A DNA stretch of 64,000 nt from Candidatus Iainarchaeum sp. (GTDB lineage: Archaea; B1Sed10-29; WALL01; JAGHAM01): contig JAGHAM010000036.1 in assembly GCA_021161465.1 (NCBI GenBank), forward strand, positions 13,512 to 77,511, read 5' to 3'. Under the pieces are notes generated by a model. The model was not told the DNA's origin. It searched no databases and saw only the letters and a program-made list of their open reading frames with translations. This document shows positions 3,992-51,794 of the stretch, one piece after another. A program made the translations under genes and the position numbers. How positions within the stretch are numbered: position 1 is the stretch's first letter; every line of letters begins with the position of its first letter.

Positions 3992-4864
3992 ATGAGTATG
4001 GGTTTCTCAATCGGTGTTTTCTACGGCGTGATTGCCCTTCTAGGTTGGGGCATTTCAGATTTCATTGCCAGAAAGGCCATTGAGAAGGAAAAATACTACA
4101 AGGTTTTCTTCCTCTCACAAATTGCTGGTGTTTCTATACTCTTGCCCTACCTTGCACTATCATCCAAGACCCTGATGGCGCCCATGGGAGACCTAGCCGC
4201 TTTCGCGATTTTAGGCGCTGTGTGGGCCTTTGGTTGTCTCGCGTTCTATAAAGCAATAGAAGTTGGGAAACTCTCTATAGTTAGCCCGGTTGGCGCGTCT
4301 TGGGCAATGGTATCAGCACTGATTGGTTTATCCATATTTTCAGAGGAAATCACTGCTGTAAGGGGAGTGGGTATACTGATTACCCTTGTAGGAATCGCGC
4401 TTGCATCCACGAATATCCCAGAACTGAGAAAGGCAAAAGCCACACGCTTGTTGAAAGGCGTTGATTACGCTCTGCTCGCGATGTTTAGTTGGGGTATAAT
4501 GTTCCCTTTCATGAATACATTCATACCATCTTTAGGACCGTTTCTACCAATAATTTACCTGAAAGGTTTCTCAATCATCTATCTGCTGGCAATCGGTCTG
4601 GTGGCGAAGAAAAGTTTTAGCTTGCCTTCAAGAAATGTCATCCCCCTTATTTTGCTGGTTGGGCTGTTTGACACAGCGGCTTTCATAGGGCTCAACTTTG
4701 GTTTGCAGACCGAGTTTGTTTCCATAGTTTCACCCACAGCAGCAGCTTTCCCAATGGTTACAATACTACTCGCGCGAACCTTCCTGAAAGAGAAGCTTGA
4801 GCTGAACCAAAAGGTAGGCGTCTTTGCGATAATTTGCGGCCTTGTCTTGATGGCCGTAATCTAA
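3992..4864 (+). CDS. EamA/DMT family transporter
   Basis: About 10 predicted TM helices in two repeated halves, typical of drug/metabolite transporters. Confidence 0.7.
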   Translation: MSMGFSIGVFYGVIALLGWGISDFIARKAIEKEKYYKVFFLSQIAGVSILLPYLALSSKTLMAPMGDLAAFAILGAVWAFGCLAFYKAIEVGKLSIVSPVGASWAMVSALIGLSIFSEEITAVRGVGILITLVGIALASTNIPELRKAKATRLLKGVDYALLAMFSWGIMFPFMNTFIPSLGPFLPIIYLKGFSIIYLLAIGLVAKKSFSLPSRNVIPLILLVGLFDTAAFIGLNFGLQTEFVSIVSPTAAAFPMVTILLARTFLKEKLELNQKVGVFAIICGLVLMAVI

Positions 4865-50964: not shown

Positions 50965-51088
50965 ATACCTAAGTTATGGTTTTTAAAATATAAAAGATAG
51001 GTTTGCGCACATGCAGAAAACAAAAAGCATCTAAGATATATCAGCATAACTGAGCTGATTCTCTTTAACGGGGAAACGAGGTGAGAAC

Positions 51089-51139
51089 ATGCCTGCTAAG
51101 AAGAAAGCCAAGAAGACAACCAAGAAAAAGAAGAAGTAA
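51089..51139 (+). CDS. possible micro-ORF encoding a 16-aa poly-lysine peptide (MPAKKKAKKTTKKKKK)
   Basis: ATG preceded by GGTGA 7 nt upstream. Very short. Could be chance. Confidence 0.15.
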   Translation: MPAKKKAKKTTKKKKK

Positions 51140-51207
51140 CTCCTAAATTGTAATGCTTATCCGAAAACCGTCTATTTTCATTTTCTTTTTTTAATATTGT
51201 GGTAGAA

Positions 51208-51509
51208 GCGCTCCCGCCGGGAATTCCACCTAACGGATTGCGTAGCAATCCTTTGCAGGTTTAGAGGTTCGTTCTCGACCATAGGTCCAGAACGTGTGCA
51301 ACCCTTCTGGTGCACCCTTTGTGCACCCTTTGTGCACCCATCCTTCCTGCGTATCGGGTGGCCTTGTGCCACCCCTGCAGGTTTAGAAAGGGTGCAACCC
51401 TTCTAGTGCAACCAATCTTTTTGAACCCGGGCTCCAAGCTCCGCAAGCTTGTGTTCTTTCCGTGCTTCGCGCTAGCGCGAAGCAATCCAGGCTATACTAC
51501 GGGAGCGCG
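51208..51509. ncRNA. candidate structured ncRNA (about 300 nt) closed by a 9 bp terminal helix; RNase P RNA-like motifs present; strand unresolved
   Basis: GCGCTCCCG at 51208 and its exact complement CGGGAGCGC at 51500-51509. Internal perfect palindrome CTTCGCGCTAGCGCGAAG, a CGTTCTCGACC/GGTCCAGAACG hairpin and GGGTGC repeats. Contains CCGGGCTCCA (identical to the RNase P CR-I core). Region is GC-rich and lacks credible ORFs. Confidence 0.35.
51290..51415. repeat. direct and tandem repeats built on the palindromic GTGCAC core
   Basis: GTGCACCCTTT occurs as 3 copies with 11 bp period. A 22 bp repeat GTGCAACCCTTCTGGTGCACCC / GTGCAACCCTTCTAGTGCAACC occurs about 95 bp apart. CTGCAGGTTTAGA occurs twice. 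Confidence 0.6.
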
Positions 51510-51638
51510 TTGTAATTTATGTTGACAGAATTATTAAAAACCAAAGCATGTTGTAATACAGTTTTTACTCCTTGCAGCGCTATCTTTTTAAAACCCTAAA
51601 CCTAAAATATAGCTCCTTAAATGCGCGAAGGGTTGTAT

Positions 51639-51794
51639 ATGGCACTAAGATGTATTTCATGTAACCGGGAAGTAGCAGACGATTATGTCAGGTTTAAGTG
51701 TCCTTCCTGTAAAAAGGAGATAATTCGATGCCAAGATTGCAGGACGAATGCAATAAGATATAAATGTCCTGAGTGCGGGTTTGAGGGACCATAG
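51639..51794 (+). CDS. Zn-ribbon protein (four CxxC pairs), COG2888-like; missing from ORF track
   Basis: MALRCISCNREVADDYVRFKCPSCKKEIIRCQDCRTNAIRYKCPECGFEGP. Alternative in-frame ATG at 51621. Sits 12 nt upstream of the aEF-1beta gene. Confidence 0.7.
   Translation: MALRCISCNREVADDYVRFKCPSCKKEIIRCQDCRTNAIRYKCPECGFEGP

Follow-up and report, generated by a model that had tools for sequence, protein, structure and literature searches.

A strongly folding GC-rich element in a Candidatus Diapherotrites genome is very probably a tRNA-Arg(GCG) gene interrupted by two non-canonical introns

What is the GC-rich element, about 300 nt in length, that folds strongly, is closed by a perfect 9-bp helix and lies at positions 51208-51509 of a 64-kb stretch of contig JAGHAM010000036.1 from a Candidatus Diapherotrites metagenome-assembled genome (MAG)? 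We call the whole 64,000-nt stretch the window. An initial annotation had read the element as a non-coding, highly structured RNA gene with pairing 5' and 3' ends, possibly RNase P RNA or the RNA of the signal recognition particle (SRP). We conclude that its minus strand, from 51506 to 51209, is very probably a tRNA-Arg(GCG) gene of this DPANN archaeon, split by two non-canonical introns in the D loop and the T loop, and that the T-loop intron is unusually long and recently expanded. The general part of the earlier proposal, an RNA gene with paired ends, is thereby borne out, as a tRNA gene on the minus strand. The element itself is real, and every sequence feature described for it was found (Table 1). 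Its G+C fraction is 0.52-0.58 inside compared with 0.30-0.44 in the flanks (55.7% for the gene against 44.4% for the window). On either strand its fold is far more stable than those of dinucleotide shuffles, with z = -6.3 on the plus strand and z = -7.1 on the minus strand (0 of 100 shuffles equally stable). The region is carried by four other, independently assembled contigs in public assemblies, 100% identical over the parts covered. The pairing of the terminal helix is indeed perfect, but its 3' arm ends at 51508, and the limits given earlier (51500-51509) were one base too long; taken alone, a perfect 9-bp inverted repeat is unremarkable, as about 0.5 are expected per 500 nt and several others are present there. 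The three overlapping open reading frames (ORFs) (51178..51372, 51261..51485 and 51310..51525) gave no match in a Pfam search, in agreement with their earlier dismissal as artefacts.

Spliced in silico, the three exons (22 + 38 + 14 nt) join into a canonical 74-nt cloverleaf in which the universal tRNA nucleotides are all present (U8, A14, G18 G19, A21, U33, G53 U54 U55 C56, A58 and C61). The CCA end is not encoded at the 3' end of the gene. ARAGORN reported no tRNA when given the unspliced window or the intron-bearing loci of related archaea described below. It detected a tRNA after removal of the 197-nt insert only, and called a standard 74-nt tRNA-Arg(gcg) after removal of both inserts, for the window as well as for one of the relatives (L007). 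The negative result on unspliced sequence is therefore due to the introns and not to the absence of a tRNA. The Rfam scan of the 64-kb window at gathering score, which included the tRNA model, likewise did not match the tRNA-Arg gene. The long ORFs of the window use CGU and CGC codons 145 times in about 18,300 codons, and a tRNA that reads them is thus needed.

Table 1. Features of the element and of the predicted tRNA gene, in window coordinates and ordered along the minus strand.
Feature	Position	Strand	Description
TATA-like box TTTTTAATAA	51531..51540	-	at -34..-25 relative to tRNA position 1
Hexamer ACAGAA	51526-51531		
Two-nucleotide leader, G-2 and C-1	51507..51508	-	pairs with C74 (51208) and G73 (51209), lengthening the acceptor stem to 9 bp
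Terminal inverted repeat, perfect 9 bp	51500-51508; 51208-51216		CGGGAGCGC; GCGCTCCCG
Exon 1, 22 nt	51485..51506	-	acceptor 5' strand GCUCCCG; U8 A9; D stem GUAU; D loop AGCCUGGAU (A14, G18, G19)
Intron 1, 27 nt	51458..51484	-	D loop, between U20a and A21
Palindrome, 18 nt	51465-51482		CTTCGCGCTAGCGCGAAG; inner hairpin h' of intron 1
Exon 2, 38 nt, first part	51420..51457	-	A21; D stem 3' strand GAAC; A26 (positions are for the whole exon)
Exon 2, anticodon arm		-	CAAGC-UUGCGGA-GCUUG; U33; anticodon GCG at 51444-51442; G37
Exon 2, 3' part		-	variable GAGC; T stem 5' strand CCGGG; T loop UUCAAA
Motif CCGGGCTCCA	51428-51437		
Intron 2, 197 nt	51223..51419	-	T loop, at 59/60
Segmental duplicate, copy A	51376-51413		in intron 2; partner of copy B
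Segmental duplicate, copy B	51254..51317	-	in intron 2; partner of copy A
Tandem array (GTGCACCC repeats)	51295..51339	-	in intron 2; 3.8 copies of an 11-nt unit (GGGUGCACAAA, RNA strand)
Near-perfect hairpin	51270-51294		CGTTCTCGACC..GGTCCAGAACG
Exon 3, 14 nt	51209..51222	-	U60; T stem 3' strand CCCGG; acceptor 3' strand CGGGAGC; discriminator G73 (51209)

The evidence that carries this gene model is comparative. Relatives were located through the neighbouring aEF-1beta and DDAH-like proteins, and the syntenic site in each of them lies between the DDAH-like gene and the aS21/aEF-1beta pair. We found the same interrupted gene in four relatives, with exons averaging 91% identity. In the five orthologs (these four and the window) the inserts occupy exactly the same two positions but are unrelated in sequence; those in the D loop span 25-33 nt and those in the T loop 27-197 nt. 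The D-loop and T-loop inserts measure 27 and 197 nt in the window, 25 and 63 nt in L005+L026 (two contigs from a single run, with a 20-nt overlap), 30 and 44 nt in L007 (on a 1.17-Mb contig), 31 and 29 nt in L012/L022 (GenBank JAIOSL010000043.1), and 33 and 27 nt in L028 (a metagenome contig). Two more distant relatives, L029 (GCA_042584585.1) and L030/L031 (GCA_021162685.1), have no insert in either loop: here ARAGORN calls an uninterrupted 74-nt tRNA-Arg(GCG), which scores 58 bits against the Rfam tRNA model. The D loop (AGCYUGGAUA) and T loop (UUCAAAU) of these intronless genes are exactly the predicted splice products, and the genes align column for column with the spliced window sequence. 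They set the junctions at GGAU|...|AGAAC and UUCAAA|...|UCCCGG. A different D-arm junction, GGAUU|...|AC (D stem UUAC, 72 nt), is accepted by ARAGORN but was rejected, since in the intronless orthologs GGAUA precedes four D-stem nucleotides and the tRNA is 74 nt long. Over the seven sequences, five of them spliced in silico under one junction rule, 95.9% of the cloverleaf cells are paired and eight pairs are changed on both sides (compensatory). None of 500 shuffles reached the cloverleaf values, and registers slid by 1-3 columns pair at 51% or less. The anticodon stem alone appears among the orthologs as CAAGC/GCUUG, CGAGC/GCUCG, UAAGC/GCUUA, AUAGC/GCUAU and UGGGC/GCCUG.

A covariance model built from the six non-window sequences (R1) had a single match in the window, which spans 51422-51506 of the minus strand and scores 40.4 bits (E = 8.7e-8). 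In this match a 28-nt insert stands in place of one model nucleotide, A21, and exon 1 is aligned with a posterior probability near 1; as R1 does not bridge the 197-nt intron, the last few nucleotides are misplaced. The same comparison bears on the identity first proposed, that of a stand-alone structured non-coding RNA, some 300 nt long and closed by a P1-like helix between its ends, as in RNase P RNA or SRP RNA. The perfect 9-bp terminal helix, the many hairpins, the strongly negative z-scores on both strands and the position of the element as a GC-rich island within an AT-richer genome would all suit such an RNA. We nevertheless give this proposal next to no credence. Rfam 15 yielded no family at gathering score in the 64-kb window and only noise at E<=10 in 51000-51750 on both strands, and neither the archaeal RNase P RNA models (types A, M and T) nor the archaeal 7S SRP RNA model matched. 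The part conserved in relatives comprises only the 74 tRNA nucleotides, and the other 224 nt are replaced by an unrelated 52-88 nt or by nothing. Thus, the paired acceptor-stem ends are kept at homologous loci, but the structure of about 300 nt as a whole is not conserved. The motifs that had suggested RNase P find other places in the tRNA gene. The P1-like helix consists of the 7-bp acceptor stem, lengthened by two leader/trailer pairs, and CCGGGCTCCA, compared earlier with the CR-I core, is the complement of the variable region and the T-stem 5' strand. The GGGTGC repeats likened to P10-P12 sit, together with the second hairpin, within the T-loop intron, whereas ACAGAA falls in the promoter spacer, outside the gene. 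The 18-nt palindrome is present as described, not as part of an RNase P RNA but as the inner hairpin of the D-loop intron.

That palindrome also gives rise to another tRNA call. When only the 197-nt insert is removed, ARAGORN reports a tRNA-Ala (agc) i(39,23), that is, a tRNA-Ala(AGC) in which 23 nt near the anticodon are taken as an intron and half of the palindrome serves as anticodon stem. This assignment is scarcely believable, because the palindrome is missing from all orthologs, whose D-loop inserts are unrelated, and because the arm CAAGC-UUGCGGA-GCUUG is kept with compensatory changes and is the anticodon arm of the intronless orthologs. To our knowledge, A34 tRNAs are not normally used in archaea, which further argues against an AGC anticodon.

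We next consider how the tRNA-Arg(GCG) transcript could be spliced. In archaeal tRNA splicing, the endonuclease EndA recognises a motif of the bulge-helix-bulge (BHB) type (PMC4090602, PMC5829648, PMC3239211), here described by its outer helix h, central helix H and inner helix h'. The T-loop junction of the window can be drawn as hBHB, with the T stem CCGGG/CCCGG as h, UUCA/UGGA as H (4/4 pairs; U54-A57 opposite UGGA near the 3' end of intron 2), and bulges AAA and AUU. The T-loop central helix has 4/4 pairs also in L028 and at most 3/4 in the other three orthologs. In L028 this junction is near-canonical hBHBh': its central helix is UUCG/UGGA, its bulges read AAU and ACU, and the inner hairpin has 8 bp. 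At the D-loop junction, Y17-U17a-G18-G19 pair with four nucleotides 3' of the intron hairpin. This central helix has 4/4 pairs in L007 and L012 and 3/4 in two other orthologs and in the window, where H = CUGG/ACGG, the bulges are AUU and AAA, and h' is a 10-bp hairpin. Across the orthologs the D-loop bulges read AU(U/G) and A(A/G)A and the inner hairpin has 7-10 bp; C17:G in the window versus U17:A in the other orthologs is a compensatory change in the central helix. The window forms are thus a relaxed hBH in the T loop and an HBh'-like motif in the D loop. A blind BHB scan of the 300 nt returned dozens of chance candidates, and the top-scoring "intron", of 246 nt, leaves no tRNA. Since chance BHB combinations are abundant in self-complementary sequence, the splice sites are fixed by the orthologs and not by the motif alone.

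Several points weigh against an intact, spliced tRNA-Arg gene. The cleavage sites are predicted from motif geometry and the intronless orthologs, and both BHB motifs are relaxed and not of the strict form. The window T-loop intron has no inner helix h' abutting the bulge, and the D-loop central helix has only 3/4 pairs and no contiguous outer helix. In L005+L026, a sequence joined from two contigs, the T-loop 3' bulge fits only at 4 nt. The spliced D stem contains an A12/A23 mismatch (window 51495 / 51455), which is kept in all five intron-bearing orthologs. Finally, another copy of tRNA-Arg(GCG) may exist elsewhere in the genome, which would leave room for the view that this copy is dead, its T loop disabled by an insertion of repetitive or mobile DNA and its processing lost. 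That the insert is 3-7 times as long as those of the relatives, is internally repetitive and has no inner helix beside the 5' bulge would fit such a pseudogene. We consider this very unlikely, because all 74 exon positions hold the tRNA consensus and the differences between orthologs occur only at covarying or variable sites. In addition, the T-loop central helix, with its full set of pairs, equals that of L028 and is better than those of the other three orthologs, the promoter box is undamaged, four assemblies hold the element in identical form and the CGY codons are in use. The window and the fetched loci also contained no terminal inverted repeats of the insert, no target-site duplication and no further insert copies. 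As a separate observation, positions 12/23 are G12-C23 and C12-G23 in the two intronless orthologs, so that the weakened D stem goes with the D-loop intron.

Upstream of the gene, an A/T box occupies -34..-25 in six sequences (the window, L005, L007, L012, L028 and L030), reading TTTAATAA, TTTTTATA, TTTAAAAA or ATTAATAA. By the standard archaeal spacing between TATA box and start site this box is a putative promoter, with a predicted transcription start at about G-2. The nucleotides flanking the acceptor stem also pair: -1:73 is C:G in the window and L005+L026, U:A in L007, L012 and L028, and U:G in L029 and L030, and G-2 pairs with nucleotide 74 in all seven sequences. These two pairs would give the precursor a 9-bp acceptor helix; together with a predicted start only about 2 nt upstream, this would make an unusual substrate for 5' maturation. 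On the pattern of established archaeal tRNA splicing, we propose the following pathway. Transcription would be directed by the TATA-like box and initiate about 2 nt before position 1, and every exon-intron junction would fold as a relaxed BHB. In the T loop, the T stem would form the outer helix and UUCA:UGGA the 4-bp central helix, with AAA and AUU as 3-nt bulges; in the D loop, nucleotides 17-19 would pair with the 3' part of the intron, flanked by bulges AUU and AAA and a 10-bp hairpin as inner helix. The archaeal splicing endonuclease would then cleave after the second nucleotide of each bulge, yielding the T loop UUCAAAU. The exons would be ligated by an RtcB-type ligase, and the introns would probably be circularised. 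The 2-nt leader would be trimmed and CCA added, and the mature tRNA would decode CGU and CGC codons.

The T-loop intron differs from its counterparts in length, with 197 nt in the window versus 27, 29, 44 and 63 nt at the same position in the orthologs (3-7 times longer). This exceeds the range of 11-175 nt given for archaeal tRNA introns in 2009 (PMC2738675), and we found no newer published maximum. Besides the tandem array, the intron contains two segmental copies that have in common GCAC-YAGAAGGGUUGCAC and CUAAACCUGCA, followed by a hairpin (83% identity over 35 nt, plus a 12/12 match). Its inner 190 nt (minus the first nucleotide and the last six) fold into a set of hairpins at -83.9 kcal/mol. 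Neither the rest of the 64-kb window nor any fetched locus held a match to the intron or its repeats. The 63-nt intron of the closest relative opens with a similar AGAAGGG...CCCUU hairpin. This likeness suggests local expansion, and we infer that intron 2 grew in the lineage of the window by slippage and by tandem and segmental duplication rather than by capture of foreign DNA. We also observed that 11 of 12 nt are common to the exon 1/intron 1 junction GGAU|UGCUUCGC (51477-51488) and the sequence GGAUUGCUACGC (51240-51251), with which the last hairpin of intron 2 starts. Chance alone would give about 0.1 such matches in 300 nt, and the D-loop junction may thus have been the source of part of intron 2. 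Assemblies break at the internal repeats of the T-loop intron, where contigs L003 and L004 start (window 51260 and 51375; TGCAGGTTTAGA), and that of a relative breaks in its T-loop intron too, where L005 ends and L026 starts (CCCTTCCCTT).

The ends and the size of the element, and the contigs that break inside it, raise the further question of whether it is a miniature inverted-repeat transposable element (MITE). Perfect 9-bp terminal inverted repeats around some 300 bp with a G+C content unlike that of the surroundings would be expected of a MITE bounded by these repeats. We find this barely conceivable, however, because the flanks hold no target-site duplication or direct repeat, because no second copy was found in the window or in any fetched locus, and because the supposed terminal repeats are the acceptor stem of a syntenically conserved tRNA. 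The tRNA-Ala(AGC), MITE and RNase P/SRP readings are all contradicted by the comparative data. A different question is whether intron 2 does something of its own, either as a persistent structured circular RNA with a protein-binding or sponge function, or as a mobile intron moving from one tRNA gene of this genome to another. The circular RNA would hold about four GGGUGCAC/GGGUUGCAC repeats on helical-turn spacing, and if the intron were functional, its growth from about 30-60 nt in sister lineages would reflect selection and not slippage. Reading of the intron sequences revealed no C/D boxes (RUGAUGA, CUGA), and intron 2 contains no ORF with a Pfam domain. Mobility is unsupported, as the search of the window and the fetched related loci yielded no second copy. 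Overall, we regard such a role of intron 2 as unlikely.

The tRNA-Arg(GCG) locus joins the disrupted tRNA genes already described in Thermoproteales, Nanoarchaeota and ARMAN, here in a Diapherotrites lineage. Its closest counterpart in the T loop is the pre-tRNA-Cys(GCA) of ARMAN-2 (Ca. Micrarchaeum), whose intron at 59/60, of the relaxed-BHB (hBH) form, is cut in vitro by the epsilon2 splicing endonuclease (PMC3239211). Both genes belong to DPANN hosts, have a T-loop intron at 59/60 and are overlooked by standard tRNA finders, and in both the motif consists of the T stem as outer helix, a bulge, a 4-bp helix and a weak or missing inner helix. Unlike in ARMAN-2, the intron of the window is 197 nt long and internally duplicated, and a second intron sits in the D loop of the same gene. 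The D-loop junction resembles that of the Methanopyrus kandleri pre-tRNA-Glu(UUC), which combines an HBh' D-loop intron before A21 with a canonical intron (PMC5829648): the two genes share a non-canonical intron directly before A21, the order of bulge, short helix and inner hairpin, and the presence of several introns per gene. The partner intron is in the T loop here and at 37/38 in M. kandleri, and the host is a DPANN archaeon rather than a euryarchaeon. Multi-intron tRNA genes with up to three BHB-type introns each are known from Thermoproteales (Sugahara 2008 and Fujishima 2010, reviewed in PMC4033280 and PMC8450103), and the present gene is like them in its non-canonical positions, rapid lineage-specific intron gain and intronless orthologs in relatives. 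Similar introns recur among Thermoproteales tRNA genes, indicating transposition, whereas neither intron described here had a second copy in the 64 kb of this genome and the related loci searched. The element resembles archaeal RNase P RNA in that it is about 300 nt long, is richer in G+C than the genome and has 5' and 3' ends that pair, but it matches no covariance model for it and its conserved parts are tRNA exons. The tRNA-Trp intron of Haloferax volcanii, at position 37/38, forms a stable circle carrying a box C/D guide RNA (PMC3326292). Like it, the window intron is long and structured and could, once excised, survive in circular form; unlike it, the window intron lies in the T loop and is without RUGAUGA or CUGA boxes.

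Two metagenome scans accompanied this comparison. The first, with the pattern CCCGTAGTATAGCYTGGATTG, gave no matches, and the second, with a shorter pattern, gave 13 loci that were mostly chance matches in coding DNA or 23S rRNA, but included one near-duplicate of L012 and two unrelated tRNA-Pro genes. These two, on unrelated AT-rich metagenome contigs (L015 ~560-626 and L023 ~4270-4411, both on the minus strand), are tRNA-Pro(UGG) genes with a D-loop intron that begins at the same GGAUUG. Their BHB motif is good (H = GCCU/GGGC, position 19/20), the L023 gene has an extra intron at 37/38, and ARAGORN misses both. No copy of the tRNA-Arg gene was found in L006, L008 or L027, where it is absent or the contig ends first. 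In L006 (3371-3615) and L008 (412-643), aEF-1beta is 67% and 77% identical to that of the window and the upstream tRNA gene is missing; the neighbourhood is rearranged, with an MFS transporter in one and a different ORF in the other. The position of the tRNA next to aS21/aEF-1beta is thus not fixed throughout the group.

On one side of the tRNA gene, a lysine-rich mini-ORF adjoins it in every relative. It has 16 amino acids in the window (MPAKKKAKKTTKKKKK, 51089-51139, plus strand), at least 39-54 in L026 (173-337, minus), L027 (1-132, minus) and L028 (533-652, minus), some of which are cut at contig ends, and 103 with KKK-x repeats in L012 (5292-5603, plus). A Pfam search of the mini-ORF gave no match, and it could be a real basic protein that expands and contracts fast, or a translated repeat. 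Just after the element lies a 57-amino-acid zinc-ribbon ORF (51621-51794, plus strand), annotated as aS21, which matches PF07754 (HVO_2753-like small zinc-finger protein) at E = 4e-13; it is a real small gene that bounds the intergenic region.

With the tRNA-Arg(GCG) reading, the identity of the element is settled as an essential translation gene that ARAGORN and the Rfam tRNA model overlook here. The tRNA sets of DPANN archaea have been described as incomplete owing to "unidentified disrupted tRNA genes" (PMC5829648), and the window locus is the kind of gene that was foreseen there. Assembly breaks inside such introns fragment MAGs and add to the "missing" tRNAs in MAG quality statistics. The orthologs form a natural series at one syntenic site, from an intronless gene to one with two short non-canonical introns and further to one whose T-loop intron is enlarged to 197 nt. 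This series could be used to study the gain and growth of BHB introns and the tolerance of the splicing endonuclease for a missing inner helix and a very long insert.

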